Source: Dehalococcoidales bacterium
Lineage (GTDB): Bacteria > Chloroflexota > Dehalococcoidia > Dehalococcoidales > RBG-16-60-22
DNA: 64,000 nucleotides
NCBI GenBank assembly: GCA_034414775.1
Contig: DAOULX010000008.1
Span: forward strand, 659-64,658
Direction: 5' to 3'
Below the pieces are notes generated by a model. The model did not search any database and was not told the DNA's origin. It worked only from the letters and a program-made list of their open reading frames with translations. Made by a program: the position numbers and the translations under genes. Positions 277 to 18,735 of this stretch are shown piece after piece. Position 1 is the first letter of the stretch. Every line of letters begins with the position of its first letter.

Positions 277-816
277 ATGACATTAGAGGAATTAGAGAAC
301 AAAATTAAAACTTTGGAAAAATTAGAAGATCGAGTCATTGAATTAGAAAAATGGGAGAATAGAGTTAGAGCTTTGGAGGATCTCGAAGAAATAGAAAAAC
401 TGCAAAGGACATACATGTCTTATTGGGATAATATTGAAGTAGATAAGATTGCAGATTTGTTTACGGAAAATGGGACCGCGGAAGTTCGAGATTCAGGGAT
501 TCGCAGAGGGAAAAAAGAGATCGCAGAATTTTATGTTAGCAAAGGCCCCAACATTAGAAATCGAGACGGCCATTTAAATGGTCAACAGATTGTTCATGTT
601 AATGGAAATGGAGCTGAGGGACATTGGATTGTATATATATTCTTTTTTGGGCAGCCTGTCCAATGGGTGGAGGGTAGAAATGATTGTAAATATATCAAAG
701 TGAATGGTGAATGGAAAATAAGTGAATTAAAATTTAACAGGATTGCGGCTTCGAAACTTGATCTGTTACTCCCTAGCGAGGCCGCCTCCATTAGGAAAAT
801 CGAGGATGCTCGATGA
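277..816 (+). CDS. NTF2-like / SnoaL-like domain protein with N-terminal coiled-coil segment
   Basis: ACAGGAGG lies 7 nt before the ATG. The N-terminus is heptad-like (LEELENKIKTLEKLEDRVIELEKWENRVRALEDLEEIEKL). It is followed by a ~130-aa region (YMSYWDN..ADLFTENGTAEV..WVEGRNDCKYIKVNGEWKI) typical of SnoaL/NTF2-like folds. Paralog of 16662-17180. Confidence 0.7.
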   Translation: MTLEELENKIKTLEKLEDRVIELEKWENRVRALEDLEEIEKLQRTYMSYWDNIEVDKIADLFTENGTAEVRDSGIRRGKKEIAEFYVSKGPNIRNRDGHLNGQQIVHVNGNGAEGHWIVYIFFFGQPVQWVEGRNDCKYIKVNGEWKISELKFNRIAASKLDLLLPSEAASIRKIEDAR

Positions 817-871
817 TAGGGCAAGTAATATTGTGCCTATTAATTAATAACTGAAAACTTTCTTGATCAGC

Positions 872-924
872 TCGATTCGGAATTAAGGAAGCAATCACTC
901 CTATATGTATGTGATTAAGTGATA
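872..924. repeat. ~52-nt segment duplicated at 16573-16623 (tail plus 3' flank of a lost SnoaL-like paralog)
   Basis: tcgattcggaattaaGgaagcaatCactcctAtatGTATgtgattaAgtgata aligns with tcgattcggaattaaAgaagcaatAactcctGtataCgtgattaGgtgata. The similarity ends exactly where the IS3-like end starts (925). Confidence 0.7.
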
Positions 925-1010
925 TGTATGTAGTCAGCGAAAGTGGGGCAATTTAGCCACTTGAGATAACGGACACTTATTGGAGATTGCCCTGTTTGTA
1001 TGTAGTCAGC
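925..1010 (+). mobile_element. solo IS3-family-like terminal inverted repeat (left-end type) with a subterminal repeat of its first 14 nt; no transposase follows
   Basis: TGTATGTAGTCAGCGAAAGTGGGGCAATTTAGCCACTTGAGATAACGGACAC (925-976) aligns with 62786-62838. It aligns more loosely with the IR in front of the orfA stub at 31056 (TGTTGTGGTCTAATAAAACGGACAC). TGTATGTAGTCAGC recurs at 997-1010. Confidence 0.5.
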
Positions 1011-1039
1011 TGGGACTGTTGCCGAAGTACTGTAGTAAG

Positions 1040-1079
1040 CAGTGAATAACCCCCCAGCAAGCTGGGGGGTTATTCACTG
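1040..1079. repeat. perfect palindrome, 19-bp arms with 2-nt centre
   Basis: cagtgaataaccccccagc-aa-gctggggggttattcactg. A degenerate relative at 16219-16250 shares GGGGT..TTCACTGAC. Confidence 0.8.
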
Positions 1080-1496
1080 ACGATATTTTTAACTTAGATT
1101 TCTCTCACATTGCAACAAAAATGGAAAGCGGAGAGATAGTTCCTGATACCAAACTTTTAGAAATTTCCTACGATGGGCCATACGAGATTTCATGCATGCA
1201 ATTATATAATGAACAATGCTTCCCCGAACAATTTTTCTCGATAACTCAAAAAATAGTTAATTATCTATATCTTCGTTGGAAAGAATCTTTTGAATTTGTC
1301 AGCAAGGAAGATGTTGATATTACAGCTGAATTTGATATTTAACTTTAATAAACACTACATATATTTGCAAACATTTTTGCTAACGAACTTTTAAGTACGA
1401 AAAGATGAGTAAAGATACCATCTGGTACAAAACGAAGCTAATTTGAATACGCAAAGGAGTTAATAACTACGATTCTTCACTCGGAGGTACAATACG

Positions 1497-1781: not shown

Positions 1782-2696
1782 TCAAAGCATACCTCTCAGC
1801 CTTGGGTCGAGTGCATCACGGAGTCCGTCTCCTACCATGTTAAAAGCGAAGACTACCACCATAATCGCGATCCCAGGCGCAAATGAGAGCACCGGATTAG
1901 AAATCAGATACCGGTAACCATCATTAACCATGGCGCCCCAGGCCGCCCCCGGCGGTTTGATACCGATGCCAAGGAAACTGAGCCCGGCCTCGGCCAGGAT
2001 GATGGTCCCCAGTTGCAATGTAATGAGCACAATCATCGGTGGTAAAGCGTTTGGCAGGATATGCGAAAGCATGATGCGCTGGTTGCTGGATCCAATTGCG
2101 TGTTCGGCTAAAATATAATCATTCTCTTTGGTACTGAGGGTCAGACCGTGCATTACTCTGGCGTAACCAGGTAGCGTGCCGATGGCGAGGGCGATAATGA
2201 CGTTCTGGATACCGCCTCCAAGCAGGGCGGCCATAAAAAGGGCAAAAATTATCATCGGAAAGGATATTAGTAGATCCATAATTCTCATAATTATCATATT
2301 GATGATTTTATTGCTGAAGTACCCTGCAATTAGCCCTAGCATTACGCCAACCACGGCGGCAAACCCGGTCGTGGCGAAGCCTACCATAATCGTTGTCCTC
2401 GAACCGTAGATAAGACGGCTGAGAGTATCCCTTCCCAGCGAATCGGTACCCAGTAAATGCTCCGGATTTGGTTGTTGCAGAGTGCTTCTCATATCCTGTT
2501 TATAAGGGTTATAAGGCGCCAGCAGTGGTGCAAATATAGCAGTTACAACGAGGAGAAACAGTATCAAGAGCCCGAAAATAATCAGTCTCCGGGCAAAAAA
2601 TACCCTGCGAAAGCGTCTCCACTCATTTACCCGCGGCGGGGCTTCTGAAAAAACTGTATCGGTATCACTTTTTACCCTGACCATTTCGGATATCAC
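1782..2696 (-). CDS. ABC transporter permease, DppC/OppC-type (peptide/nickel family)
   Basis: 304 aa with multiple hydrophobic spans. The N-terminal SEAPPRVNEWRRF and C-terminal FNMVGDGLRDALDPRLRG are typical of this permease family. It abuts the upstream permease gene. Confidence 0.9.
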   Translation of the reverse strand: MISEMVRVKSDTDTVFSEAPPRVNEWRRFRRVFFARRLIIFGLLILFLLVVTAIFAPLLAPYNPYKQDMRSTLQQPNPEHLLGTDSLGRDTLSRLIYGSRTTIMVGFATTGFAAVVGVMLGLIAGYFSNKIINMIIMRIMDLLISFPMIIFALFMAALLGGGIQNVIIALAIGTLPGYARVMHGLTLSTKENDYILAEHAIGSSNQRIMLSHILPNALPPMIVLITLQLGTIILAEAGLSFLGIGIKPPGAAWGAMVNDGYRYLISNPVLSFAPGIAIMVVVFAFNMVGDGLRDALDPRLRGML

Positions 2697-3653
2697 CTAG
2701 CCGTACCGTATCCTGGGATCGAGCCAGCCATAAGATATATCGACTATTAGATTCACCACCAGAACAATGGTGCCAAATATGAGTGTGGTAGCCTGAACGA
2801 CGACATAGTCCTGGTTGAAAATAGAATTTACCATCATCCTGCCCATACCCGGAATATTAAAAACGGTCTCGATGAACACGGAGCCACCGAAGATCATGCC
2901 GACGGCAAAACCCATCAGGGTAATTACCGGAATCAGGCTGTTTTTTAGCATGTGCTTGATTACGATGGTGCGCTCCCGCAGCCCCTTTGACCAGGCCGTG
3001 CGGATATAGTCCTGCCGGGCGACTTCAAGCACGCTTGACCTCATTTGCCGCGACATCGAGGCCAGGCCAAGTACGCTCCCACAAGCTACAGGCATAATTA
3101 ATTGCCGGGTATTCAGCCAGAAATCCTCGAATGGGGATTCATACCCGCCGATGGGCAGCCAGCCAAGCTTGAGACCGAAGGCATAAATAAGCAAAATACC
3201 CAGCCAGAAAACGGGCACGGTTATCCCCACGTAAGCCAATGGCGTCACAATTTGATCGGCTAACTTACCCCGTCTTAATCCCGCCAGGAGACCAGATAAC
3301 GTCCCCAAGATGGTGGCGACAATAAATGACAGCACTCCAATATGGGCTGTTATGGGAAAACGCTTGACTATCAGCTTGCCAACATTTTCATTGTAAAATA
3401 TCGACCTTCCCAGATCACCCCGCAAAACTTTGCTTACCCAGTTATAATATTGCACCAGGATCGGCTTATCCAGTCCGTGCTCAGCCCGCAGTTGCGCAAG
3501 CGCTTCGGGTCCTATATTCGATATCTGGCTCTGGGCAATATAGATCATCAGTGGGTCGCCGGGTAGGAGCCGCATGGCGAAAAAAATGACCAGTGTCAGC
3601 ATAATAATGATAACCAGTGCCCATATCAATCGCCGGATGATATATGTCGTCAT
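2697..3653 (-). CDS. ABC transporter permease, DppB/OppB-type
   Basis: 318 aa. The MTTYIIRRL start and C-terminal VDISYGWLDPRIRY are typical of DppB-like permeases. It forms an operon with 1782-2696. Confidence 0.9.
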   Translation of the reverse strand: MTTYIIRRLIWALVIIIMLTLVIFFAMRLLPGDPLMIYIAQSQISNIGPEALAQLRAEHGLDKPILVQYYNWVSKVLRGDLGRSIFYNENVGKLIVKRFPITAHIGVLSFIVATILGTLSGLLAGLRRGKLADQIVTPLAYVGITVPVFWLGILLIYAFGLKLGWLPIGGYESPFEDFWLNTRQLIMPVACGSVLGLASMSRQMRSSVLEVARQDYIRTAWSKGLRERTIVIKHMLKNSLIPVITLMGFAVGMIFGGSVFIETVFNIPGMGRMMVNSIFNQDYVVVQATTLIFGTIVLVVNLIVDISYGWLDPRIRYG

Positions 3654-3837
3654 TTTCTACCTCGAAAACTCGTGCTGCGTCTGCCCATAGACACTCTTTA
3701 ACCGTTGTTCCTCCCCCCGTATCGGTTCCACTGATGGTCGCCATAATCCTACCATGGAATATTAGGCTCGTTTACCGGGCGATTACTCAAATGGTCACAG
3801 GCAAGTTCAAAGTTACTACATGTTACTTCAATGTATT

Positions 3838-3902
3838 TTGATTGTCAATCTGAAATCCCTATAATATCCGTTATTGACAAAACGTAATTTATTGCTGATA
3901 AT
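3838..3902 (+). promoter_or_regulatory. two tandem sigma70-like promoters upstream of the binding-protein gene
   Basis: TTGATT(3838-3843)-16 nt-TATAAT(3860-3865) and TTGACA(3874-3879)-17 nt-GATAAT(3897-3902). They would give a ~150-190 nt leader before the ATG at 4057. Confidence 0.4.
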
Positions 3903-4056
3903 CTGATAGTGGTACAAAACCAATAAATATGAAATAGCCCGGCTGACAGAGTACTAACTTTAAAAACTGGGAGGGAGGCGAAAATGTAATGCGCAAGGTA
4001 CCCTCGAAAAAAGCTAATGACTGGTATGTTAATAAAGGAGGTTGGAAAGCAAAATA

Positions 4057-5682
4057 ATGAAGAAATTATTGATTTTAGCTCTAGCAATCATTGTCATCGG
4101 TAGTTTGTTGATTGGCGGTTGTGCTGAGACGACCAAACCGGCTGAGACGACCAAACCGACCGAGCCGGCCAAGACCACCGAGCCGGCCAAGACCACCGAG
4201 CCGACCCCAGCACCCGGCACGCCGAAGAGCGGTGGTACGTTGAGAGTGCTCTGGCAGGCCTGGGTAAGCAACCTGAGTTGGATCCCGGAACAGAGTATGA
4301 ATGATGAGGGCTTTGCCAAAGCCTATGCGGAGACGCTCGTATACTGGTCTGGCTCAGGAGATTTCGAGCCCGAACTGGCTAAGTCCTGGGAGATCGACGA
4401 GGTCAACAAGACCCTGACCTTTTACTTGGAAGAGGGCGTTAAGTTCCACGACGGCACTCCCTTCAATGCCGAGGCCGTAAGATGGAATGTACAGAACCTT
4501 ATAGACAGCAAAAGGTTGGCCAACAGTCAATACGTGGACTCTATCGAGGTGATCGATGATTATACCTTCCGCTACAATCTCAACGCAGTATTTACTCCGT
4601 CAATTATGTTGCACTCTTATGGCTATAACCTCTGCACCATGTTTTCACCCACGGCTTTCGAAAAGAACGGCGGTAGAGATTGGGCTGTTTCCCATTTTGT
4701 CAGCACTGGACCATTTAAATTCGAGAGTTGGGAGCAGGATGTCTCGATGAGAATAGTGAGGAATGATGATTACTGGCGCGGCGACCCCTATCCCTATCTT
4801 GACGCTATAGAATTTATCTTCATTGCTGACTCGACCGTCGCTGCAGCCAAGATGCAGGCCGGAGAAGCGGATGCCTGGCAATACCCGGTGTTGAAAGAGT
4901 CGACGGATTTAGAAAAACTGGGTTTCAATGTAATCGTTGGAGTCGGCGGTATGTATTCCGAACTCATCCCGGACAACGTATCCGAAGGCTCGGTCTACAA
5001 GGATAAAAGGGTCCGCGAGGCGGTGGAGTATGCCATTGATAGGGATTCAATGGCAATAGGACTGGGGTACGGCAAACTAAAAGCTGTGAAACAAGCCGGT
5101 GGTCCAGAAACCAGCCAGGGTTATAACCCGAACTTCAAAATGCGGGAATACAACCCGGAGAAGGCGAAAGAGCTGTTGGCAGAAGCCGGTTATCCCGACG
5201 GCTTTTCGACCACGATTCTCGTCATGCAGGGCGACCAGCAGGACATAGCTACTTCAATTCAGGCAAGTCTAGCAGATGTTGGCATCGAGGCTGAAGTGGA
5301 TGTAGCTGACCCGGGTAGGTTCATCGGCTCGATATACCAGGGCGGCTGGAACGGCGGCCTGTTGTTATGGATGGTCCCGGTTGACCCGGAATTCGCCATT
5401 GGCTGGTTCGTGCATTTCGGCCCGCAGCCTATTTTCCCTTACCCCAGCCTACAATGGCCGGATGAATACCGTGAACTGGTAGAAAAAGTACGCCTGGCAC
5501 CCACTCTTGATGAGATGCGTGCGGCTACCATGGAAATGATGACCCTGGTCACTGAAGGGGCATATCTCATCCCGCTTATGGATTTCCTGAACCTATACGT
5601 CGTCACAGACTATGTAAGGACCGAACGCTACCACGACCACTTCATGGTCTGGCATAACTATAATGATTGGCTGGATAAATAG
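4057..5682 (+). CDS. ABC transporter substrate-binding lipoprotein, family 5 (DppA/OppA/NikA-type)
   Basis: A signal peptide plus lipobox (LLIGG-C) is followed by the linker ETTKPAETTKPTEPAKTTEPAKTTEPTPAPG. The body contains VKFHDGTPFNAEAV and VREAVEYAIDR. I prefer the ATG at 4057 (MKKLLIL), because the ORF-track start at 4042 is a TTG abutting AAGGAGG. Confidence 0.9.
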   Translation: MKKLLILALAIIVIGSLLIGGCAETTKPAETTKPTEPAKTTEPAKTTEPTPAPGTPKSGGTLRVLWQAWVSNLSWIPEQSMNDEGFAKAYAETLVYWSGSGDFEPELAKSWEIDEVNKTLTFYLEEGVKFHDGTPFNAEAVRWNVQNLIDSKRLANSQYVDSIEVIDDYTFRYNLNAVFTPSIMLHSYGYNLCTMFSPTAFEKNGGRDWAVSHFVSTGPFKFESWEQDVSMRIVRNDDYWRGDPYPYLDAIEFIFIADSTVAAAKMQAGEADAWQYPVLKESTDLEKLGFNVIVGVGGMYSELIPDNVSEGSVYKDKRVREAVEYAIDRDSMAIGLGYGKLKAVKQAGGPETSQGYNPNFKMREYNPEKAKELLAEAGYPDGFSTTILVMQGDQQDIATSIQASLADVGIEAEVDVADPGRFIGSIYQGGWNGGLLLWMVPVDPEFAIGWFVHFGPQPIFPYPSLQWPDEYRELVEKVRLAPTLDEMRAATMEMMTLVTEGAYLIPLMDFLNLYVVTDYVRTERYHDHFMVWHNYNDWLDK

Positions 5683-5708
5683 TCCAAAATCCTGATGGAT
5701 AGAAAAGA

Positions 5709-5772
5709 CCGGATGGTTCAGCCTCGTACACAGAAAAATCGGAATGAAGCTGAACCATCCGGCTTAATTTTT
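5709..5772 (+). terminator. rho-independent terminator after the binding-protein gene
   Basis: The 14-bp stem ccggatggttcagc / gctgaaccatccgg (5709-5722 / 5749-5762) is followed by CTTAATTTTT. Confidence 0.6.
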
Positions 5773-6267
5773 AGATACTATATATATGAAAGAGTTCTAT
5801 ATGATAAAACTTCGGCGGGGATAGGGTGACAGAGTATAAGCGTTGAACAACAGGGCTGTTGAGATACTAAAAAAAAGAGGGCGAAATCCATCACTCCTCT
5901 AGCTGTACCATTGCTTACTATCCTGGTTTTTCCGGTTTTTTGAGTTCGGGCAGGAAAGTAATAATCCTCTTTTTTTACGAGACTTGTTTTTATTGTTAGC
6001 AAATAAACACCGGCATATAATGAGGGCCAGAATATAAGTAACAAGTTCATCCAAATGTGATTCTACTGTACCTTATTCGTTTCACGGTCTCCATTGGAAC
6101 ACTAAAAGATATCGCATGCATTCGTTAGTATTTTTCTATTAGATCATAAGAGACAATTCGAAACAGAGGATCTATGGCTGATAGTTCGGCAAAATCGTTG
6201 ACGTGAGCCAATTGATCCTGGTTGTGTATTTTTGAGTATACACTGAGAAAGTTTAGAAGATACCGAG

Positions 6268-6424
6268 GAAGTTCATGATATTTGTACCGGTACCGGGTAT
6301 CCTGGCTCGGTTGCCGACATTTATTGGCTCAGTTACCGGCGGTGGCAGTTCCGCCATGGCGCACGATTTATTCGGAGCCGAGAGTATCGTTCGAAAGCAG
6401 AACGGGGCCGATGTTAAAAATTAG
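6268..6424 (+). pseudogene. fragment of an FAD-dependent oxidoreductase paralogous to 17200-18735 (N-terminal ~50 aa, frameshifted and internally deleted)
   Basis: One frame reads EVHDICTGTGYPGSVAD (GxGxxG). After a +1 shift it reads GSVTGGGSSAMAHDLFGAESIVRKQNGADVKN*. The intact gene has GSTGGTSAMAHDLFGVESIVQKRMGTD. Confidence 0.55.
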
Positions 6425-7880: not shown

Positions 7881-7898
7881 GATTCATTACCACCTTTC

Positions 7899-9164: not shown

Positions 9165-9223
9165 TTTTCGCTCCTTTTTTATTATTCACCTTATTTCCCC
9201 TTGCACTCACTTTCCTCACCACC

Positions 9224-12385: not shown

Positions 12386-13282
12386 TTAAAGCGTCCCTCT
12401 TAACCTCGGGTCAAGGGCATCTCTGAGAGCATCCCCAACTATGTTAAAGGCAAAGACAACTAACATAATAGCCGCCCCGGGAGCGAAAGAGAGAATCGGT
12501 AGCTTTACCAAGTAGCGATATCCTTCATTGACCATGGCGCCCCATGCAGCGCCCGGTGGTTTTATCCCGATACCGAGAAAGCTGAGGCCTGCCTCGGCAA
12601 GAATGAGGAACCCTAGCTGTAAAGTAACTACCACGATAATCGGCGCGATGGCATTCGGCAAGATATGGCGTAACATAATACGGGGATGACTAGCACCCAT
12701 CGCCCGTGTCGCCAGGATATAGTCATTTTCTTTGATGGAAAGAGCCATGCCGCACATTACCCTGATATAGCCGGGAATGGTGGCGATACCGAGGGCCAGG
12801 ATAACATTCTGGATACCCCCTCCAAGTACCGCCGCTAACAAAAGGGCAAGCACAATCATGGGAAAAGGCATGAGAATATCGGTGAACCTCATGATAAGCA
12901 TATTTATTGTACCGCCAAAATATCCGGCAAGTATGCCCAACGTCACGCCTATTACTGTGGCAATGGAAACGCTCACAAACCCCACCGTCAACGCCGTCCT
13001 CGTACCGTAAATGAGCCGACTTAACGTGTCTCGGCCAATGGGGTCGGTGCCCAGTAGATGTTCACGGCTCGGCTGCTGCAATATATTGCTCAGCTCCTGT
13101 TTATAGGGGTCGTAAGGCGCCAGTTGCGAGGCGAAGATGCCTGTCAACGCCAGGATTATTAGTATCAGGAGACCGAAAATGACTATTCTACGCTGGAAAA
13201 ATACTCTTACGAAGCGCCTCCACTCATTTACCCTCGGAGGAGCTTCAGAAAAACCAGTGGCGGTAATAACATCTGTTTTCAT
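12386..13282 (-). CDS. ABC transporter permease, DppC/OppC-type (paralog of 1782-2696)
   Basis: It shares SEAPPRVNEWRRF and LSFLGIGIKPPGAAWGAMVN with the first cassette and ends ..GDALRDALDPRLRG. Confidence 0.9.
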   Translation of the reverse strand: MKTDVITATGFSEAPPRVNEWRRFVRVFFQRRIVIFGLLILIILALTGIFASQLAPYDPYKQELSNILQQPSREHLLGTDPIGRDTLSRLIYGTRTALTVGFVSVSIATVIGVTLGILAGYFGGTINMLIMRFTDILMPFPMIVLALLLAAVLGGGIQNVILALGIATIPGYIRVMCGMALSIKENDYILATRAMGASHPRIMLRHILPNAIAPIIVVVTLQLGFLILAEAGLSFLGIGIKPPGAAWGAMVNEGYRYLVKLPILSFAPGAAIMLVVFAFNIVGDALRDALDPRLRGTL

Positions 13283-13295: not shown

Positions 13296-14255
13296 TTAAG
13301 CATACTGTATCCTGGGGTCGAGCCAGCCATAGGCGATGTCTACAATCAGATTGGCTAATACTACTACCACAGCGAAGACTAAAGTACATGATTGTACTAC
13401 TGCATAGTCATGAGAAAAGATACTGGTCACCATTAGATAGCCGATACCGGGAATGGAGAACACGGTTTCAACAATCACCGAACCGCCGATGATAAATCCC
13501 AGTTGAAGCCCGAGAACGGTAACAACCGGGATGAGGCTGTTTTTCAGGACGTGTTTCATTATTATGATACGCTCGGCTAAACCCTTGGACCAGGCGGTCC
13601 TAATGTAGTCCTGGCGGATAACTTCAAGCATGCTTGACCTCTGCAGGCGCGCTATCCCGGCTAGCGCCCCGATGGAAAGACAGATAACGGGCATGATTGC
13701 CTGTTTCGTGTGTTGCCAGACATCTGTAAAAGGTGAGGTATAACCGATTATCGGTAACCAATTGAGCTTGAGACCGAAAAGGTAAATCATCAGTACCCCC
13801 AGCCAGAAAATGGGAATGGTGATACCGATATACGATGAGGGCGTTATTATCCTGTCACCCCACCCGCCGCGCCTCATAGCGGCCAGTACGCCGGTCATAA
13901 TACCCAGAACCGTACTGATGACAAATGCTTCCAGTCCCAGGTTTATGGTTACCGGATAACGCTCCCGGAGTAATGTGCCGACCGGTACATGATGAAATAT
14001 TGAATGTCCGAAGTCGAATCTAATTACACCGGAAACCCAGTTAGCGTATTGTACCATGATGGGCTTGTCCAGCCCGAACTCCTGCCGCAGCTTTTCTATC
14101 CCCTCCTCGGATAGAGTGGATAACTGCTGACTCTGGCCGATATAGATGATAAGCGGGTCGCCGGGCAGTAATCTCATGGCGAAAAAAACAATAACTGTTA
14201 CCATCAACAGACAAAATATCGCCAGTAGCACCCGCCGAACAATATACGTTATCAT
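13296..14255 (-). CDS. ABC transporter permease, DppB/OppB-type (paralog of 2697-3653)
   Basis: 319 aa, starting MITYIVRRV and ending VDIAYGWLDPRIQY. Confidence 0.9.
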   Translation of the reverse strand: MITYIVRRVLLAIFCLLMVTVIVFFAMRLLPGDPLIIYIGQSQQLSTLSEEGIEKLRQEFGLDKPIMVQYANWVSGVIRFDFGHSIFHHVPVGTLLRERYPVTINLGLEAFVISTVLGIMTGVLAAMRRGGWGDRIITPSSYIGITIPIFWLGVLMIYLFGLKLNWLPIIGYTSPFTDVWQHTKQAIMPVICLSIGALAGIARLQRSSMLEVIRQDYIRTAWSKGLAERIIIMKHVLKNSLIPVVTVLGLQLGFIIGGSVIVETVFSIPGIGYLMVTSIFSHDYAVVQSCTLVFAVVVVLANLIVDIAYGWLDPRIQYA

Positions 14256-14451: not shown

Positions 14452-16083
14452 TTACTTTTCCAGCCAGTCGTTCCACATCGACCAGTATGTATAGTCAAGG
14501 TCCTTAAATAAGTCGGTATGGAAGTTTGGCCCGCAAGCGGAAGTTGCCATGTTCATGGTCAACGGAATAAACATGGCATCCAGTCCAGCCTGAGTAACCA
14601 TTTGCTGGGTCAATTTACGCATAGTGGTTATATCCGATGCCTGGATCAGCTTCGCGCAAAGGTCGAGATATGCCTGGGACTTGGCCATGCTCGCGAACTT
14701 CATAATTGGCTCCGGACCTACATGGTCAAGCCAGCCGACAGAGAATTCCGGGTTGATAGCGAGGGTACCTATGAGAAGGCCTTCCCAGCCCATGTTGACG
14801 GAACCCCAGAATCTGCCGACATCAGCAGCATCGATTTCGATATCAATTCCGATTTCTTTCAGGTAATTCTGTATGATAGCCCCTGCGTTCTCTGCGCCTT
14901 GGGGTACCATCAATTTCGTCTTGAAGCCGTCGGCAAAGCCTGCCTCTGCCATTAATTCCCTGGCTTTCGCCACGTTGTAGGCACGTTCCGGATAGTCGGG
15001 GTTGTAACCGGCGGTACCTTCGTGTGTCGGCTGGTTCACGGGCTCCTGGAAGCCAAACCCGAGCGCATCAGCCATCGCCTGGCGGTCAATGGCGTATTCA
15101 ACCGCTTCACGTACTTTCTTGTTGGCGAATGGTGAAGCCGGATCCACGCTATCAGGGTATAACACACTATATATCATCGGGGTCTCGATTACCTGGTAAC
15201 CCAAATTCTTCAGGTCGGCCGCTTGCTGAGCCCTTGTGTACAGCCAGATATCCGCCTGCCCCGCCTGCATCATCGCCGAAGCTGTCGTCGGATCCTTAAC
15301 AGTAATGTACTCTACAGAATCAAGATAGGGGAATCCAGTGCGCCAGTAGCCGTCAAATTTGTTCATCTTAAGAACCACATCGCGCTGGAAATCGGTAGTC
15401 TGGAATGCCCCTGTTGAAGTGGAATGGTTGATAGCCCAATCTTCTCCGTTTTTCTGACAAGCGGTGGGGGAGTACATAAAGACCCGCGTCAGGTTGTAAA
15501 TAACCTGGTTATTCGGGGCATTAAGAGAAATTTTTACAGTGTAGTCATCGGTAGCTTCTATCTTATCAATGTACTTGCCGTTGGATAAAATGCCCGCGTC
15601 CTTGGCTCCCTGGAAGCTCCAGACGACGGCCGTAGCATTTAAGGGAGTCCCATCCTGGAACTTGACGTCTTTCCTCAGGTGAATGGTAATGGTCTTCATG
15701 TCGGATGACATCTCGTAACTTTCCGCAAGACTGGGCGAAAAATCCCCGTTTGTTTTGAGGTCGAATATCCTTTCCGAAAATATCGTTGCGACGCCATTAT
15801 CGCTGAACGATTGTTTCGGATAGTAGCCAATATTCTGGGGGGTATGTGCACCACCAGCAATAACCCTCACATTACCGCCGTATTGGGGCTGACCGGGGGT
15901 GGGTTCTGGTGCAGTCGTCGGCGCTGGTGCAGATGTCGTTGCTGGTGCGGATGTCGTTGCTGGTGCGGATGTCGTTGCTGGTGCAGTCGTCGGCGCTGGT
16001 GCAGGTGTTGTTTCGGCACAACTGCTGAAAATCAAACTAGTCAAGAGTAGTACTATCAGGGACATAACTAACAATTTTTTCAT
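14452..16083 (-). CDS. ABC transporter substrate-binding lipoprotein, family 5 (paralog of 4057-5682)
   Basis: GGAGGG precedes the ATG. The lipobox (IFSS-C) is followed by an (APATTS)n linker. The body contains VKFQDGTPLNATAV and VREAVEYAIDR. Confidence 0.9.
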   Translation of the reverse strand: MKKLLVMSLIVLLLTSLIFSSCAETTPAPAPTTAPATTSAPATTSAPATTSAPAPTTAPEPTPGQPQYGGNVRVIAGGAHTPQNIGYYPKQSFSDNGVATIFSERIFDLKTNGDFSPSLAESYEMSSDMKTITIHLRKDVKFQDGTPLNATAVVWSFQGAKDAGILSNGKYIDKIEATDDYTVKISLNAPNNQVIYNLTRVFMYSPTACQKNGEDWAINHSTSTGAFQTTDFQRDVVLKMNKFDGYWRTGFPYLDSVEYITVKDPTTASAMMQAGQADIWLYTRAQQAADLKNLGYQVIETPMIYSVLYPDSVDPASPFANKKVREAVEYAIDRQAMADALGFGFQEPVNQPTHEGTAGYNPDYPERAYNVAKARELMAEAGFADGFKTKLMVPQGAENAGAIIQNYLKEIGIDIEIDAADVGRFWGSVNMGWEGLLIGTLAINPEFSVGWLDHVGPEPIMKFASMAKSQAYLDLCAKLIQASDITTMRKLTQQMVTQAGLDAMFIPLTMNMATSACGPNFHTDLFKDLDYTYWSMWNDWLEK

Positions 16084-16539
16084 AATACCCTCCTTATTTA
16101 AAATGTAATTGTTAGTGCACGCTCATATTCTGCGCTGAATCCCCCCAAGCTTGTTGGGGGGGGATAAAAATGGCCCCCGTCCGTAACTTGGTGTGGGGTG
16201 GATACCTATCCCCTAATGCCCCGCAGCTTGCCATGGGGTGCTTCACTGACAGGTATTTCACTTCGTTTGTAACCCCCTTGGAAGTTTATTCAACAAGCCA
16301 GCGATAGTTACGGGCACCATTCCTGACTTCTTTAAGGTTAGATGAATAATGGAACAGTGTTCCATTTTTTAATTGGTGATAGTATATAAGTGCGGAAATA
16401 TTTTGTCAAGAGCTTTGAATCGGAGATAGCCTGTATGCGGAAGTTACTTACTATTTTCAATGCTATGATTCGATCAAAGACAGTTGTTACAATGTTCCTG
16501 TGGAAGTAAAATGAACGGGCGGACGTTGTTGATAGACCC

Positions 16540-16587
16540 GAATTGGAAAAATTACAAGATCGAATCATGGCATCGATTCGGAATTAA
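16540..16587 (+). pseudogene. remnant of another SnoaL-like paralog (N-terminal coiled-coil words fused to C-terminal words)
   Basis: It reads ELEKLQDRIMASIRN*. Gene 277-816 has LEKLEDRVIELE near its start and EAASIRKIEDAR* at its end. The duplicated flank 16573-16623 follows directly. Confidence 0.35.
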
Positions 16588-16661
16588 AGAAGCAATAACT
16601 CCTGTATACGTGATTAGGTGATACTTACCCCAAAAATAGTAAGATTCAGGTAAGGAGCAAA

Positions 16662-17180
16662 ATGATAAGAGAAGAATATGAGAAAAAGTTAAAGAGGTTA
16701 GAGGCTGTTTTGGAAGATCATGAAAAACAGCTGAAAAAATTTAAGGATATACAGGAACTCCAAGAGTTGCATTTAAATTATGCCTACTTGCTGTGCACTC
16801 GTGAATGGGAGAAAATTGTGGATTTGTTCACAGATGATGCAGTGGCTATCCTGCATCGACGAGGAAGGTTTGAAGGAAAGAAAGAAATAATAAAAATATT
16901 TAAAGAAATTGTCCAGAATAATGGCGGCAGGGGAAGAGATGGCCATCTCGCATTACAGCCTATTATTAACGTTGATGGAGACGAAGCAACAGCTCAATGG
17001 CTGATGTACATTATGATTTTGGATCCAAAAGGGAAATATGAGAATACTTGGATGCATGGTAGGCATGATATGGAATACGTCCGTATTGACGGGCAGTGGA
17101 AAATTCGATATATGCTTTTTACATCTCCCTGGCCCAGGGAAGCCTGGTCATACCCCAAATTAGAGCCGCTGAAAAAGTAA
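16662..17180 (+). CDS. NTF2-like / SnoaL-like domain protein (paralog of 277-816)
   Basis: AAGGAG precedes the ATG. The coiled N-terminus (EEYEKKLKRLEAVLEDHEKQLKKFKDIQELQEL) is followed by YAYLLCTREWEKIVDLFTDDAV..RIDGQWKI. Confidence 0.7.
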   Translation: MIREEYEKKLKRLEAVLEDHEKQLKKFKDIQELQELHLNYAYLLCTREWEKIVDLFTDDAVAILHRRGRFEGKKEIIKIFKEIVQNNGGRGRDGHLALQPIINVDGDEATAQWLMYIMILDPKGKYENTWMHGRHDMEYVRIDGQWKIRYMLFTSPWPREAWSYPKLEPLKK

Positions 17181-17199
17181 ATCGTGTGGTGGGATCACT

Positions 17200-18735
17200 T
17201 TAAGAGAGATATTTAACCGCGTTTTCTCCGGCAATTCGGCCCGAATTAAGCGCAAAGCCAAGCAGGTGCCCGGTGAGTTCGTAGCAGTAGCTATCCGATT
17301 CCCAGCCACCAGTCGTCGAGCCGGCAGCAAAAAGGCCAGGGATAGGATCGTCATTGGAGTTAATCACCTCCATATTTTCATTTATCTTGATACCACCGAT
17401 GGCGTCACAAATCTGTGAATGACCTTTGATAGCATAGAAAGGAGGCGATTTGATTGGTAATAGATATATCTTGTCCTTGCAGAAAACGGGATCATAAGCT
17501 TTATCGCAGGCAGAGTTGTATTCCGCGATGGACCTCTTCAGTGTTTCAGGTCTTGCCCCGATCCAGTTAGCAATCTCTTCCAGGGTGTTGGCTATCTTTA
17601 ACCACTCAGAGTGATTTTCGGCAATTTCACGCAACCCCTTTCCTATTCCGGGTAAGGGTCTCCCGCTCGTCACCGAACGTGCCATCGCCTGTTGAACTCC
17701 GTAGGCAGCCGGGCGGAGCAGTCCTTCCTCCTCAATGGACCCCAATATGCTCTCGTCAAACAGGCAATACATGGTACCCTCTGGCTGCTGAGCCGATGCA
17801 TTAGCACAGGCAAAGGAAGAGAGGTTATGACCTTCATCGATATATCTTCGGCCTCTCTTATTCACCCACAGCGTTTGAGGCTCCCAGACAAGGTTTGACA
17901 GAAATACACTTATCTCATTATCCTTGCCGGGATTGATGGTAATACGTCCATCTGGCGAGTTGGAGGAAGGCGAGTGCGGGCCGTGAAACATGATATGCCC
18001 CAGGCCAGCCATTTCCGCTCCGACTTCCATGGCCAGCTGTATGCCATCTCCGGTGTTGTGGCGTACCCCGTGATTCAGCATGACTTCCGGGTTGTAATAG
18101 GAACAATGCTTCGCGAGTAATTCTTTGTTCCCGCTATAACCGCCGGTAGTGATAATAATGCTTTTAGCGGTAATCTGATAATCTTTATCCGGGCCGGTAG
18201 CCAAAACCCCGGTTACCTGGCCGTTCTTCTCGCATAAAATTTTTTCCCCGGGGGTTCTGGTGAGCACCTGTATTCCTCGTTCTTTGCATTCATTGGCCAA
18301 CACTCTCATTAAAAAAGCGCCCCGGCCTTCGATGGCATGCCTGACGCGCGGGCATTGATTGATATAATATTGACTAAGATGGAAAGTGATTCCCTTTTCC
18401 ATAAGCCATCTAATAGTGTCGCCTGATTTATCGATAAAAGCCCGCACAATGCGTGGATTCACCTTTGACCAGTGGCACCAGCGCATGGCTATTTTAAAAA
18501 AATCGTCCCTACGGGCATCGGTGCCCATCCGCTTCTGAACGATGCTTTCGACTCCGAATAAATCGTGTGCCATTGCGGAAGTGCCACCGGTGGAGCCTAC
18601 CTTCTCCAGCACAATTATTCTCTTGCCGCCTTTTTCCGCTGCCGCTAAAGCTGCCGCCAGTCCTGCGCCGCCGCCGCCGATGATGACTATTTCAGCTTCC
18701 AGTTTCTCACATTCTCTTTCTCCTGAAGAATTCAT
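17200..18735 (-). CDS. FAD-dependent oxidoreductase, FAD_binding_2 family (fumarate reductase / KstD-like flavoprotein)
   Basis: It has the dinucleotide motif VIIGGGGAGLAAALAAAEKG and the C-terminal GLFAAGSTTGG. 511 aa, convergent with the SnoaL-like gene. Confidence 0.85.
   Translation of the reverse strand: MNSSGERECEKLEAEIVIIGGGGAGLAAALAAAEKGGKRIIVLEKVGSTGGTSAMAHDLFGVESIVQKRMGTDARRDDFFKIAMRWCHWSKVNPRIVRAFIDKSGDTIRWLMEKGITFHLSQYYINQCPRVRHAIEGRGAFLMRVLANECKERGIQVLTRTPGEKILCEKNGQVTGVLATGPDKDYQITAKSIIITTGGYSGNKELLAKHCSYYNPEVMLNHGVRHNTGDGIQLAMEVGAEMAGLGHIMFHGPHSPSSNSPDGRITINPGKDNEISVFLSNLVWEPQTLWVNKRGRRYIDEGHNLSSFACANASAQQPEGTMYCLFDESILGSIEEEGLLRPAAYGVQQAMARSVTSGRPLPGIGKGLREIAENHSEWLKIANTLEEIANWIGARPETLKRSIAEYNSACDKAYDPVFCKDKIYLLPIKSPPFYAIKGHSQICDAIGGIKINENMEVINSNDDPIPGLFAAGSTTGGWESDSYCYELTGHLLGFALNSGRIAGENAVKYLS

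Follow-up and report, generated by a model that had tools for sequence, protein, structure and literature searches.

PCMH/VAO enzymes act on 4-hydroxyphenyl substrates. The same substrate class is used by VprA (PMC10295242) and by LdpA, which proceeds via a quinone methide (PMC9942872). Sharing of "multitask" ATPases is well established among type I importers (PMC7658222). In the 64-kb stretch of Dehalococcoidales DNA analyzed here (the window), genes resembling each of these enzymes lie among what sequence comparison identifies as two anciently diverged PepT-type ABC uptake modules (SBP5, DppB, and DppC), both without ATPase genes of their own.

Two genes encode SnoaL_4/NTF2-fold proteins, namely, the BaiE/LdpA-like SnoaL1 (277 to 816, plus strand; 179 amino acids; Pfam SnoaL_4, E = 4.5e-20) and the LdpA/BaiE-like SnoaL2 (16662 to 17180, plus strand; 172 amino acids; E = 1.5e-23). 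Both resemble LdpA and BaiE by sequence profile and fold, although identity is only 19 to 24%. A profile search of the PDB with SnoaL2 retrieved LdpA (1e-13) and BaiE (1.5e-9), which were also the top Foldseek matches of its AF2 model (pLDDT 85). The SnoaL1 model (pLDDT 87, with a helix at residues 3 to 51) matched a putative scytalone dehydratase (3ef8), LdpA, and BaiE. A coiled-coil N terminus on a SnoaL fold had been considered unusual; however, this helix lines up with its N-terminal counterparts in BaiE and LdpA, and additional LE(K/E)LExRV repeats seen in the alignment account for its greater length in SnoaL1. SnoaL1 has Tyr, Asp, and His aligned with BaiE Tyr30, Asp35, and His83. SnoaL2 (dN/dS 0.09) retains the Tyr and His but carries Cys in place of the catalytic Asp, the Asp of the His-Asp dyad. 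LdpA residues Glu143 and Tyr147 are conserved in neither protein. From profile and modeled fold, we infer that the SnoaL_4 proteins may be cofactor-less lyases or dehydratases.

Convergent with SnoaL2, and so not cotranscribed with it, is FAD2 (17200 to 18735, minus strand), a cytoplasmic FAD_binding_2 oxidoreductase of 511 amino acids (Pfam E = 1e-50; dN/dS 0.18). Its best family is NCBIfam VprA, matched at 269.5 bits over the full model length, under the 600-bit cutoff; the vinylphenol reductase VprA thus appears closest to FAD2. FAD2 lacks three of the four catalytic residues of fumarate reductase, with Trp, Cys/Asp, and Glu in place of Arg402, His504, and Arg545, respectively.

Further redox genes belong to a string of seven same-strand genes (16083 to 6414) that opens with the solute-binding protein gene of the second importer. 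Two VAO/PCMH-like FAD_binding_4 flavoproteins, member a (6414 to 7880, minus strand; Pfam) and member b (9224 to 10687, minus strand; PDB match), flank an HdrD/GlcF/TfrB-like Fe-S protein (7899 to 9164, minus strand) with two CCG domains (Pfam CCG, E = 8.7e-27; Fer4_8). The Fe-S protein, for which NCBIfam returned TfrB- and LdhH-type matches under their cutoffs, is presumed to be the electron-transfer subunit of the trio. The best PDB match of member b is p-cresol methylhydroxylase (1dii/1wve, E = 1.8e-17, residues 6 to 442); that of member a is annotated "Oxidoreductase" (8s7s, E = 3e-13), followed by p-cresol methylhydroxylase (E = 7e-12), and its matches include eugenol/vanillyl-alcohol oxidases. 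A GlcDEF-like assignment was rejected, as the glcD match was weak and confined to the N terminus of member a, and PCMH/eugenol oxidase matched best. Homologous trios adjoin FAD2 or SnoaL homologues in L002, L005, L006, L014, L027, L029, L103, L105, and L108. A type-B carboxylesterase (COesterase; 10822 to 12309, minus strand; Pfam E = 3e-115) separates DppC2 from the trio and shares their strand. In L001, the COesterase N terminus likewise follows DppC, and homologues occur near related cassettes in L039 and L042. The window also holds UbiD-like, AhtL-like, benzoylformate-decarboxylase-like, and aldehyde:ferredoxin oxidoreductase genes.

The first importer comprises the permeases DppC1 (1782 to 2696, minus strand; OppC_N and BPD_transp_1) and DppB1 (2697 to 3653, minus strand; BPD_transp_1_N and BPD_transp_1), both intact by Pfam, and the family-5 solute-binding lipoprotein SBP1 (4057 to 5682, plus strand; SBP_bac_5, E = 1.4e-77). 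The second comprises DppC2 (12386 to 13282, minus strand) and DppB2 (13296 to 14255, minus strand), typed through 70% and 59% amino acid identity to their Pfam-typed counterparts, and the family-5 lipoprotein SBP2 (14452 to 16083, minus strand), which is 39 to 41% identical to SBP1. The L001 orthologues of DppC2 and DppB2 (each 94% identical; dN/dS 0.19 and 0.14) and of SBP2 (dN/dS 0.31) carry precomputed OppC_N and BPD_transp_1, BPD_transp_1_N and BPD_transp_1, and SBP_bac_5 domains, respectively. NCBIfam searches yielded GsiB, NikA, and CntA types as best matches for SBP1, all far under cutoffs, and GsiB/NikA-type matches under cutoff for SBP2. The host is probably a monoderm, given that each SBP is a lipoprotein with a Thr/Pro-rich linker (in SBP1 behind the lipobox Cys, MKKLLILALAIIVIGSLLIGGCAETTKP...).

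One of the two copies had been described as decaying, a view that the set-1 genes contradict. DppC1, DppB1, SBP1, and SnoaL1 are all full length with complete Pfam domains, and similarity to outgroup homologues is equal for set-1 genes and their set-2 partners (DppC1, for instance, is 61 to 68% identical to homologues in L006, L010, L046, and L096). The intergenic region between DppB1 and SBP1 (3820 to 3902) contains divergent promoter-like sites, which are consensus matches only: a sigma-70-like TTGACA-17-GATAAT upstream of SBP1 (3874 to 3902, plus strand; 11/12 matches) and TTGACA-17-TAACAT on the DppB1 side (3848 to 3820, minus strand; 10/12 matches). SBP2 is preceded by a comparable TTGACA-17-TATACT (16409 to 16381, minus strand; 11/12 matches). 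SnoaL1 has a dN/dS of 0.33 relative to its L084 orthologue, and set 2 ranges from 0.09 to 0.31 against L001. By these measures, both transporters are intact and under constraint.

The four paralog pairs listed in the earlier note were recovered at their positions (open reading frames and Pfam), and the two DppC peptides quoted there as identical do occur in both DppC1 and DppC2. These pairs nevertheless proved very divergent, the outcome that the earlier note had named as counting against its proposal: amino acid identities span 32 to 70%, from the SnoaL_4 pair (32%, E = 3e-28) through the SBP and DppB pairs to DppC, nucleotide identity is at best 65 to 68%, and synonymous sites are saturated (pS 0.76 to 0.84). 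SnoaL1 and SnoaL2 fall into separate subfamilies and are both nearer to proteins of other phyla than to one another. In a neighbor-joining tree of concatenated DppB and DppC, set 1 joins the foreign contig L096 before set 2. Recent duplication was rejected on these three grounds (saturation, distinct SnoaL subfamilies, and the L096 grouping); an ancient paralogy of the two sets is well supported by the sequence comparisons.

What gave set 1 the look of a second, decaying unit evidently results from later local rearrangement that left an IS3 remnant, a relocated SnoaL1, and a fragment of the FAD2 clade. Directly upstream of SnoaL1 lies the C-terminal remnant of an IS3-family (rve_3) transposase (1 to 130, plus strand), whose open reading frame (46 to 126) ends in ...WRPHNSLENLAPVRYH; its homologue in L084 matches Pfam rve_3 (E = 1.7e-19), and L089 extends 177 nt further upstream than the window at 100% identity. 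On the right flank of SnoaL1, positions 872 to 924 copy the 5' leader of SnoaL2 (16573 to 16623) as a 53-nt direct repeat of 87% identity. Just upstream of SnoaL2, a collapsed relic (16492 to 16623) is what is left of a segment that ran left flank, IS remnant, SnoaL1, and right flank: positions 16492 to 16547 match what precedes the IS remnant (L089 1 to 56; 84%), positions 16543 to 16568 match SnoaL1 codons (window 313 to 338; 92% over 26 nt), and the three matches (left flank, SnoaL1, and right flank) are collinear. Of the two stretches previously taken for SnoaL debris, 16540 to 16587 is thus borne out, with its collinear flank copies, while 862 to 880 is not SnoaL coding sequence but part of the 53-nt repeat. 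In L084, the leader sequence occurs once, linking SnoaL1 to SnoaL2 directly beside it. That junction could be a mis-join, as it coincides with a repeat of the Logan contig, but the relic inside the window points to the same relocation. Movement of SnoaL1 out of the set-2 neighborhood, together with the IS3 remnant and with flanks that duplicate SnoaL2 leader sequence, is therefore well supported at the sequence level.

The proposed FAD fragment is real. It lies at 6340 to 6424 (plus strand), is cut at both ends, and covers only residues ~50 to 75; positions 6341 to 6418 correspond to FAD2 residues 50 to 75 with 18/26 identities (tblastn E = 2.8e-6). At the nucleotide level, it is 82% identical to FAD2 of the window over 74 nt, and its identity to the L001 FAD2 is 89%. 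The sequence upstream gave no match to FAD2, and the fragment runs to a stop codon at position 6425, overlapping the 3' end of the convergent member a gene. Its DLFG..ESIV signature was found only in the window FAD2 and its L001 orthologue, marking it as a 5' piece from the same lineage-specific clade. The idea that a three-part set occurs twice does not hold, since set 1 is not an ancestral unit: the fragment (by its signature) and SnoaL1 (by its copied flanks and the L084 order) derive from the set-2 neighborhood.

A search of other genomes did uphold the proposed linkage of SnoaL_4, FAD_binding_2, and SBP/DppBC genes beyond chance position. With FAD2 homologues as anchors, 79 loci were drawn from 185,579 species-representative genomes; a SnoaL_4 gene was present in 14, a family-5 SBP in 13, and both in 8. 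Presence of the two was associated (odds ratio 16, p = 1e-4, ignoring kinship and contig-length differences), and SnoaL and SBP genes were 3.3-fold (p = 0.014) and 5.1-fold (p = 0.0017) denser, respectively, <2 kb from FAD2 than at 2 to 10 kb, again ignoring kinship and contig-length differences. The cassette DppB-DppC-SBP-SnoaL_4-M24-FAD_binding_2 recurs without ATPases, mostly in Dehalococcoidia-labelled MAGs (at least eight species-level genomes plus L001, L088, L106, and L110). In L042, L088, and L106, it extends, beside IclR, to DppB-DppC-SBP-SnoaL_4-M24-FAD_binding_2-(OYE+Pyr_redox_2)-M24-COesterase, with which L035, L039, L069, and L075 are collinear. The unit is nonetheless loose, as 60/79 loci contain no SnoaL or SBP gene inside 10 kb and SnoaL homologues also occur with other partners. 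The importer is exchangeable, given that Desulfopila aestuarii retains the enzymes with TRAP and MFS transporters in its place, and relatives replace the redox partner with an OYE-type enzyme or a PCMH-like trio. Judged by gene order, importer, NTF2 enzyme, and flavoprotein are genuinely linked in a recurrent and modular way; because the same combination appears in other anaerobes, the linkage is probably functional.

The description of the importers as ATPase-less also stands, in that no Dpp/Opp-type ATPase gene or relic occurs within 64 kb. Pfam, a motif scan, and a gap search of the whole window found none, nor did tblastn searches that used two L046 DppD/F proteins as queries; the sole ABC ATPase is OpuA type (52382 to 53629). 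No ATPase lies beside the DppBC pairs of L001, L006, L010, L035, L039, L042, L069, L078, L088, or L096, whereas dppDF adjoins dppC in the delta-proteobacterial MAGs L046 and L064. We infer that ATPases are supplied in trans: the SBP would hand substrate to DppBC, with DppD/F-type ATPases from other genomic loci, common to the paralogous permease pairs, energizing transport.

Once inside, an ester or amide may be hydrolyzed (COesterase in the window; M24 peptidases in related cassettes). The Tyr/His (with or without Asp) acid-base set of the NTF2 enzyme could then remove or add water (or a comparable leaving group) adjacent to a carbonyl or 4-hydroxyphenyl group, making or consuming a conjugated C=C (enone, vinylphenol, or quinone methide). 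The VprA-like FAD2 would reduce or form such a bond, and the PCMH-like complex of two flavoproteins and the HdrD-like Fe-S subunit would oxidize an alkyl side chain. Every enzyme assignment falls under family cutoffs (e.g., VprA, 269 versus 600 bits). Family-5 SBPs are not known to bind phenolic compounds, and the M24 peptidases within cassettes are in keeping with a substrate that could instead be peptide-like or amino acid derived.

Support is good for the evolutionary and structural account, while the chemistry and substrate class are tentative. On balance, we lean toward ancient paralogous importers combined with modular NTF2/flavin catabolism and ATPases in trans as the best overall explanation. 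Rather than representing a novel type of system, the locus is an uncharacterized catabolic gene cluster. It belongs to a catabolic island in an uncultured anaerobe, where it may serve a modular anaerobic pathway that degrades a phenolic or enone substrate.

The ORF listing and Pfam place four gene families twice inside 18.5 kb, confirming the gene calls of the earlier note, whose sequence observations were essentially right. Set 1 consists of a SnoaL_4 gene (SnoaL1, 277-816, plus strand), DppC-like and DppB-like permease genes (DppC1, 1782-2696, and DppB1, 2697-3653, both minus strand), an SBP_bac_5 lipoprotein gene (SBP1, 4057-5682, plus strand), and a short FAD_binding_2 fragment (about 6340-6424, plus strand) recognized by its match to the complete flavoprotein of set 2. 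A minus-strand string starts with SBP2 (16083-14452) and runs through DppB2 (14255-13296), DppC2 (13282-12386), a type-B carboxylesterase (12309-10822), and a trio comprising a FAD_binding_4 flavoprotein (member b, 10687-9224), a CCG/Fe-S protein (9164-7899), and another FAD_binding_4 flavoprotein (member a, 7880-6414). Set 2 is completed by SnoaL2 (SnoaL_4, 16662-17180, plus strand) and FAD2, a 511-aa FAD_binding_2 oxidoreductase (18735-17200, minus strand) that is convergent with SnoaL2 at a distance of 19 bp. An exact look-up of the FAD2 protein returned no record, and the exact SnoaL1 sequence occurs among the records only on a 1.2-kb Logan contig. An Rfam search of window positions 1-22000 (E ≤ 1) retrieved no riboswitch or other RNA element naming a substrate. 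The AT-rich noncoding gap separating SnoaL1 from DppC1 contains a perfect hairpin with an 18-bp stem (1040-1079; CAGTGAATAACCCCCCAGC AAGC TGGGGGGTTATTCACTG) with a T-rich tail after it; a C6/G8 hairpin-like motif resembling it lies at about 16130-16170.

The two sets are far apart in sequence. In pairwise BLAST, amino-acid identity was 70% for DppC, 59% for DppB, 39 to 41% for the SBPs, and 32% for the SnoaL proteins (32 to 36% across the comparisons made); at the nucleotide level, the permeases were 65 to 68% identical, and the SnoaL genes showed no detectable identity. The proportion of synonymous differences (pS, Nei-Gojobori) was 0.76 to 0.84 in all four pairs and is thus saturated. Neither the high nucleotide identity nor the low dS of a recent block duplication was found. 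SnoaL1 and SnoaL2 fall into separate subfamilies, with SnoaL2 homologues retrieved at 61 to 94% identity (74% in Desulfopila aestuarii) and SnoaL1 relatives at 39 to 93%. In a neighbor-joining tree of DppB plus DppC, set 1 joins the foreign contig L096 first, and set 2 with its close relative L001 (GCA_975964885.1) only afterwards. Taken together, the low identity, the saturated pS, and the grouping with L096 argue that the two sets are old paralogues or separate acquisitions rather than the outcome of a recent block duplication.

The set 1 genes are also intact. The transporter genes of this set are full-length and as similar to outgroup homologues as their set 2 counterparts: DppC1 and DppC2 share 64 and 60% identity, respectively, with the homologue at retrieved locus L006, 61 and 64% with that at L046, and 61 and 62% with that at L078. 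This symmetry was used in place of dN/dS, as no close orthologue of the set 1 transporter genes was retrieved. For the set 2 genes, dN/dS against the 90 to 93% identical relative L001 was 0.09 to 0.31; for SnoaL1 against the Logan contig L084, it was 0.33. Strong promoter-like sequences, which are consensus matches only, lie upstream of both SBP1 and SBP2. The comparison of pairwise identity and dS (32 to 70% amino-acid identity, pS saturated) speaks against recent duplication, and the description of a duplicated unit with one decaying copy was wrong, since the pairs are saturated at synonymous sites and the set 1 genes are intact.

Both SBP lipoproteins carry a Thr/Pro/Ala-rich linker of short tandem repeats behind the lipobox Cys, made up of APATTS repeats in SBP2 (window 15906-15940 versus 15978-16012) and TTKPAE/TTEPAK repeats in SBP1 (window 4130-4200). 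These linkers suggest a monoderm host.

The flavoprotein fragment beside set 1 has a different age from the transporter genes. It corresponds to FAD2 residues 50 to 75 (18/26 identities, E = 2.8e-6) and terminates where the convergent gene at 6414-7880 ends; the sequence 5' of it has no match to FAD2. Its nucleotide identity is 82% to the window FAD2 and 89% to the FAD2 of L001, and the three alone have DLFG...ESIV in common, all other homologues reading DIFG...ESPV. This identity and the private motif make the fragment far younger than the transporter split; it is a young piece of the FAD2 clade rather than an old companion of set 1. A tblastn search of the gaps 817-1781, 3654-4056, 5683-6340, and 16084-16661 with 22 query proteins (E ≤ 5) found only this fragment and a 9-residue SnoaL1 relic.

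SnoaL1, too, is a later arrival beside set 1. The contig L089 is 100% identical to window 1-978, reaches 177 nt further upstream, and carries, in this order, a left flank, an IS3 (rve_3) remnant, SnoaL1, and a right flank at 872-924. Directly upstream of SnoaL2, window 16492-16623 contains both flanks and 26 nt of SnoaL1 coding sequence, collinear with that arrangement. In L084 (84 to 90% nucleotide identity), the IS remnant and SnoaL1 are directly followed by SnoaL2, and the three are bordered on both sides by SBP2-SnoaL2 intergenic sequence; L084 is a short-read unitig contig with its right junction inside a repeat, and the window relic agrees with it independently. The copied SnoaL2-leader flanks and the collapsed twin upstream of SnoaL2 show a secondary move: SnoaL1 formerly stood beside SnoaL2 and later came to lie next to set 1, by copying or by relocation. 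The SnoaL debris noticed earlier at 16540-16587 is real and, judging from its collinearly flanked coding sequence, is what remains of the original SnoaL1. Because the repeats 872-924/16573-16623 and 1050-1151/16219-16319 (the latter a weak likeness, 63% over 103 nt) are not collinear, we give no step-by-step rearrangement history. In L084, the SnoaL2 orthologue (1420-1936) is broken into overlapping frames at 1525-1773 and 1667-1936, reflecting either a pseudogene or an assembly error, and no FAD2 gene follows it.

These observations bear on the proposal that a three-gene unit (importer, SnoaL protein, and flavoprotein) was block-duplicated in this genome and that set 1 is now decaying. The close spacing of the doubled SnoaL, DppC, DppB, and SBP families, the FAD_binding_2 fragment adjoining set 1, and the placement of both DppBC pairs in the same tree clade are what recommend it. 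Synonymous saturation, the low identity of the SnoaL proteins, the closer relationship of set 1 DppBC to L096 than to set 2, the youth of the FAD fragment, the secondary arrival of SnoaL1, and the intact set 1 genes all stand against it. We regard this proposal as already largely refuted and highly unlikely.

We then considered the linkage outside the window. A profile of FAD2 homologues, run against one genome per GTDB species, yielded 79 loci, each taken with at most 10 kb of flanking sequence. Most of them come from MAGs that bear the labels Dehalococcoidales/Dehalococcoidaceae, Acidobacteriota, or Desulfobacteraceae/delta-proteobacteria, with peat, fen, and sediment as source labels; Desulfopila aestuarii DSM 18488 is also included. 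By tblastn with the window proteins, a SnoaL homologue was found at 14/79 loci, a family-5 SBP at 13/79, DppB plus DppC at 9/79, and SnoaL together with SBP at 8/79, from eight different genomes. SnoaL density within 2 kb of FAD2 was 3.3 times that at 2 to 10 kb (p = 0.014), and SBP density was 5.1 times higher (p = 0.0017); DppB and DppC showed no enrichment within 2 kb across the 79 loci. The presence of SnoaL and that of SBP were associated (8/6/5/60 loci; odds ratio 16, p = 1e-4, in statistics that ignore phylogeny). Co-occurrence of SnoaL, FAD_binding_2, and family-5 SBP genes elsewhere thus exceeds that expected from position by chance.

A collinear cassette recurs at loci L035, L039, L042, L069, L075, L088, and L106, and partly at L110. 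At L042 it reads IclR, DppC-DppB, SBP-SnoaL_4-M24(Creatinase_N)-FAD_binding_2-(Oxidored_FMN+Pyr_redox_2)-M24-COesterase. The same order and orientation are found in at least eight species-level genomes (MAGs labelled Dehalococcoidia and delta-proteobacteria) and on independent metagenome contigs. Other arrangements occur as well: L001 has the set 2 layout of the window plus one additional SnoaL_4 gene; L096 has DppC-DppB-SBP divergent from SnoaL_4, a second Dpp set, and no FAD2; and SnoaL homologues accompany OYE-type reductases at loci L097, L117, and L133. A metagenome scan anchored on SnoaL returned mostly short contigs, and its matches at 30 to 35% identity were uninformative, being tandem SnoaL arrays that belong to other subfamilies. 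In the cultured sulfate reducer Desulfopila aestuarii DSM 18488 (locus L005, NZ_FRFE01000002.1, 204165-225649), the order is DctQ-DctM-SnoaL-DctP-SnoaL-(176-aa ORF)-AOR-FAD2-SnoaL-AsnC, followed by the trio and two MFS genes. FAD2 is 59% identical to that of the window, the SnoaL2-type protein 74%, and the trio 56 to 72%, and there are two more SnoaL genes. These enzymes are accompanied by a TRAP system and the two MFS transporters, without a Dpp importer.

It could be argued that there is no functional link at all and that abundant, multicopy families meet by chance in large catabolic islands. Neither SnoaL nor SBP lies in the flanks of 60/79 FAD2 loci, many genomes supply two or three FAD2 paralogues, SnoaL homologues are also found as tandem arrays or next to unrelated genes, and DppB and DppC are not enriched around FAD2. 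However, chance does not readily account for the collinear cassette across so many genomes and contigs, for the enrichment of SnoaL and SBP near FAD2 and their mutual association, or for the retention of the SnoaL2-type/FAD2 pair in D. aestuarii despite a different transporter; we consider a chance meeting unlikely. The suggestion of a functional unit made in the earlier note therefore holds as regards recurrent linkage, which the 79-locus enrichment and the cassette bear out, but not as regards a fixed unit, given the loci without partners and the exchangeable transporter. The gene neighborhoods support a modular, exchangeable, and loose association, and the window region is an uncharacterized variant of an ordinary-looking catabolic gene neighborhood. 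A literature search on Dehalococcoidia SnoaL/fumarate-reductase clusters found no paper on this cluster.

Both importers have the Dpp/Opp architecture, namely a family-5 SBP with permeases carrying OppC_N and BPD_transp_1_N domains. The set 1 importer was typed by Pfam and that of set 2 through its 39 to 70% identity to set 1 and the Pfam matches of the L001 orthologues. In canonical DppABCDF/OppABCDF systems, two ATPase genes normally follow dppC. In contrast, they are missing here and in the cassettes, which are mostly Dehalococcoidia-labelled: no Dpp/Opp-type ATPase gene or relic was found in the 64-kb window, and DppBC pairs lack adjacent ATPases in both window sets and at L001, L006, L010, L035, L039, L042, L069, L078, L088, and L096. 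Among the retrieved DppBC pairs, dppD/dppF lie next to dppC only at L046 and L064, both from delta-proteobacterial MAGs. Type I sugar importers borrow shared multitask ATPases such as MsmX, MsmK, and MsiK (PMC7658222). The operon-encoded ATPase is missing in both cases, although the papers found concern carbohydrate (CUT1-type) importers. By analogy, we infer that the ATPases would be encoded in trans and shared among PepT-type importers.

The SnoaL proteins are about 170 aa long and combine a SnoaL_4/NTF2 fold with an N-terminal helix. AF2 models (pLDDT 85 and 87) show a continuous N-terminal helix of 44 to 49 residues (3-46 or 3-51). Among solved structures, the SnoaL2-family profile scores LdpA (E = 1e-13) over the bile-acid 7-alpha-dehydratase BaiE of Clostridium scindens and relatives (E = 1.5e-9; PDB 4LEH, 4L8O, 4L8P). 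Foldseek likewise places LdpA and BaiE among the top matches of both models, over 148 to 175 aligned columns, with TM scores of 0.58 to 0.72 against 4leh and 4l8p. Since the helix aligns with the LdpA and BaiE folds in profile, AF2, and Foldseek comparisons, it is a shared feature of this subfamily, and the N-terminal coiled coil is not unusual, contrary to the earlier note. SnoaL1 and its four closest relatives have about 20 extra N-terminal residues with repeated LE(K/E)LExRV units (window 277-400); compared with the usual family N-terminus, MTLEELEKRVRALEDLEEI, this extension lengthens the N-terminal helix from within.

Residue conservation separates the window proteins from both enzymes. 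The BaiE catalytic residues are, in the C. scindens numbering, Tyr30, Asp35, and His83. HMMER alignments put a Tyr, an Asp, and a His of SnoaL1 at these positions; the SnoaL2 family keeps Tyr40 and His95 with Cys or Leu in place of Asp (Cys in SnoaL2), and in the cassette homologues of SnoaL1, Gln or Ser occupies the Asp35 position. BaiE resembles the window proteins in fold, in its length of about 170 aa, and in an N-terminal helix of the "MTLEE..LE.E...DIEEI" type, but it is only 21 to 24% identical to them. BaiE works functionally with flavin oxidoreductases in the bai pathway; its partners are the OYE-type BaiCD/BaiH, whereas the partner here is a FAD_binding_2 protein, with OYE-type enzymes present in related cassettes. 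By Pfam, no CoA ligase/transferase, 3-alpha-HSDH, BaiCD/BaiH, or BaiG gene lies beside either SnoaL gene in the window. LdpA, a homotrimeric diarylpropane lyase from sphingomonads (PDB 8ABT-8ABW), uses a His97-Asp40 dyad, Glu143, and the oxyanion-hole residues Tyr35 and Tyr147 (PMC9942872). Equivalents of Tyr35 and His97 are conserved in both SnoaL proteins and that of Asp40 in SnoaL1 alone, while Glu143 aligns with Met or Val and Tyr147 with His or Asn, such that the full LdpA residue set is absent. LdpA shares the fold and the long N-terminal helix with the window proteins; it is a cofactor-less acid-base enzyme that works beside a 4-hydroxyphenyl group, as the window proteins may be. In contrast, identity to LdpA is only 19 to 24%, and LdpA comes from aerobic sphingomonads, while window-type loci come from anaerobe MAGs. 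At 172 aa (SnoaL2) and 179 aa (SnoaL1) versus 251 to 263 aa, the window proteins lack the trimer-stabilizing C-terminal arm of LdpA. Neither SnoaL1 nor SnoaL2 is an orthologue of LdpA or BaiE.

For FAD2, the best curated family is VprA (NF053717; 269.5 bits, E = 5.6e-80, model positions 6 to 481 of 481). The score falls below the equivalog cutoff of 600 bits, so VprA is the closest named family and not an equivalog. FAD2 has only FAD_binding_2-type Pfam matches, without a haem or FMN_bind domain. Among solved structures, it matches flavocytochrome c3 and urocanate reductase best (E = 1e-36 to 7e-31) and shares with them the FAD plus capping-domain architecture. The catalytic residues of flavocytochrome c3 are His365, Arg402, His504, and Arg545; in alignment with 1d4c, His365 is kept as His, but Trp stands in for the proton donor Arg402, Cys/Asp for His504, and Glu for Arg545, and these substitutes are conserved across the FAD2 family. 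The "fumarate reductase" label (JGI) on FAD2 homologues is thus not supported. FAD2 also matches tricarballylate dehydrogenase TcuA and, partially and more weakly than VprA or the flavocytochrome, KstD and 3-ketosteroid-delta4-5alpha-dehydrogenase. VprA, to which FAD2 is similar by sequence, is soluble, consists of a single FAD_binding_2 domain, and catalyzes reduction of a C=C bond conjugated to a phenol. It was characterized as the vinylphenol reductase of Lactiplantibacillus plantarum, where its gene adjoins that of the LysR-type regulator VprR; the cluster lp_3124-lp_3125 as described has no SnoaL or ABC-importer partner (PMC10295242).

The trio (6414-10687, minus strand) resembles p-cresol methylhydroxylase-type (PCMH) flavoproteins. 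The top solved structure for member b is PCMH (1dii/1wve, E = 2e-17, nearly full length); for member a, PCMH ranks second behind the unnamed oxidoreductase 8s7s. E-values of the two flavoproteins against the PCMH/VAO family range from 1e-12 to 1e-17, with eugenol and vanillyl-alcohol oxidases also best or near-best. A glycolate oxidase (GlcDEF) identity was rejected, as PCMH/VAO matches rank many orders of magnitude above GlcD or LDH. Unlike PCMH/VAO systems, the trio has no cytochrome c gene and encodes a CCG/HdrD-like Fe-S protein (Pfam) between its two flavoproteins. Geobacter PCMH likewise uses two different flavoprotein isoforms. The trio may be read, on similarity, as an anaerobic alkylphenol hydroxylase whose Fe-S subunit replaces the cytochrome c of classical PCMH. 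It stands beside FAD2 at loci L005, L006, L014, L027, and L029, and SnoaL homologues accompany it at L002, L103, L105, and L108. It is kept at 56 to 81% identity in MAGs labelled with several phyla. Within the CCG gene, 67 nt (8053-8119) match the opposite strand at 55459-55525 with 78% identity, which may mark a second CCG-type gene or fragment near 55.5 kb.

Further genes of the window deserve mention. Window 19273-33445 is a gene run typical for anaerobic aromatic or 2-oxoacid metabolism: it encodes a D-2-hydroxyacid dehydrogenase, a benzoylformate-decarboxylase-like TPP enzyme, a UbiD-like decarboxylase, an Fe-ADH, an aldehyde:ferredoxin oxidoreductase, and two molybdopterin enzymes, one with a pyrogallol-hydroxytransferase-like AhtL N-terminal domain. 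Genes for ETF beta, a ferredoxin-fused ETF alpha, and a FixC-like flavoprotein (FAD_binding_3/DAO) follow in a row at 35660-39026, and another ETF-domain gene lies at 54490-55281; these could be electron partners of the flavoenzymes. At 45030-50165 (minus strand), a gene for a 1,178-aa DNA polymerase III alpha-like protein adjoins an impB/mucB/samB (IMS) family gene in a layout that resembles the imuB-dnaE2 damage-inducible mutagenesis cassette. A 189-aa ORF at 57124-57693 (minus strand) with a LysR substrate-binding domain alone, lacking the HTH domain, may be a truncated regulator gene.

In a possible scheme, a substrate would be taken up through the family-5 SBP and DppBC, powered by ATPases acting in trans, and its ester or amide bond might be hydrolyzed by the carboxylesterase of the window or by the M24 enzymes of the cassettes. 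The NTF2 enzyme would then perform an acid-base elimination or hydration, yielding or using a C=C bond conjugated to a carbonyl or 4-hydroxyphenyl ring; the VprA-like flavoprotein would reduce or form that conjugated bond; and the PCMH-like/HdrD-like complex would oxidize the side chain. As LdpA, VprA, and PCMH/VAO all act on 4-hydroxyphenyl substrates, a phenolic compound is the best single guess by analogy, though still less likely than not. The LdpA reaction on its 4-hydroxyphenyl substrate passes through a quinone methide (PMC9942872). The more specific reading, that the modules form an anaerobic quinone-methide route (LdpA-like lyase/hydratase, VprA-like ene-reductase, and PCMH-like hydroxylase) fed by PepT-type importers with one common ATPase pair encoded in trans, is conceivable yet doubtful.

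Two other substrate classes were weighed. The first is a bile-acid or steroid pathway, with the SnoaL proteins as BaiE/Hsh2-like 7-hydroxy-3-oxo-delta4 dehydratases and FAD2 as a KstD-like 3-ketosteroid dehydrogenase/reductase. BaiE is among the best solved-structure matches, SnoaL1 keeps its Tyr/Asp/His triad, and FAD2 has the partial steroid-dehydrogenase matches. Related cassettes carry OYE+Pyr_redox_2 enzymes resembling BaiCD/BaiH, with FAD2 at L042 followed by a 700-aa Oxidored_FMN+Pyr_redox_2 protein, and the locus P0043 has ChsH2-like, thiolase, CoA-transferase, and SDR genes. However, the family profile favors LdpA over BaiE, the KstD matches are partial and much weaker than those to VprA and the flavocytochrome, and a bile-acid CoA ligase/transferase, a 3-alpha-HSDH, and a BaiG-type transporter are absent beside the window sets. 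The peat, fen, and sediment origin of the loci also counts against this pathway, as does the fact that no family-5 SBP is known to bind a steroid; we judge the pathway very improbable. The second is a peptide-like or amino-acid-derived substrate (an opine, Amadori product, modified dipeptide, or phenolamide), set by the Dpp importer and M24/creatinase-like hydrolases, with the flavoprotein and NTF2 enzyme processing a nonpeptide moiety. The SBPs are nearest to GsiB, NikA, CntA, and DppA types, although every match is far below its cutoff. In the cassettes of L042, L088, L106, and L110, M24/Creatinase_N genes separate SnoaL from FAD2 (L088 also has a PepX/S15 peptidase), but no M24 gene occurs in the window. 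The TcuA match of FAD2 fits such a substrate as well, while the TRAP and MFS transporters of D. aestuarii suggest a carboxylate. Taken as a separate explanation, this substrate class is improbable; it is compatible with a phenolic substrate and not exclusive of it.

If the linkage is functional, it represents a widely distributed, uncharacterized catabolic module, with hundreds to thousands of homologues in peat, fen, aquifer, and sediment metagenomes and hosts among Dehalococcoidia, Acidobacteriota, and Desulfobacterota whose carbon substrates are largely unknown. Two points bear on annotation: as a rule, the PepT-type permease pairs in the cassettes of mostly Dehalococcoidia-labelled MAGs have no ATPases, and homologues annotated as "fumarate reductase flavoprotein subunit" do not have the catalytic residues of that enzyme. 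The similarities to LdpA, VprA, and PCMH offer a testable lead to anaerobic turnover of plant phenolics, which is experimentally tractable in the cultured D. aestuarii DSM 18488, as it carries the enzyme core. The quinone-methide route, if it exists, would act on 4-hydroxyphenyl compounds from lignin or plants (phenylpropanoids, vinylphenols, or ethylphenols, and perhaps dimers or conjugates). It would place such chemistry in uncultured Dehalococcoidia and Desulfobacterota, with a new PCMH-like enzyme that passes electrons to an HdrD-like Fe-S protein instead of cytochrome c.
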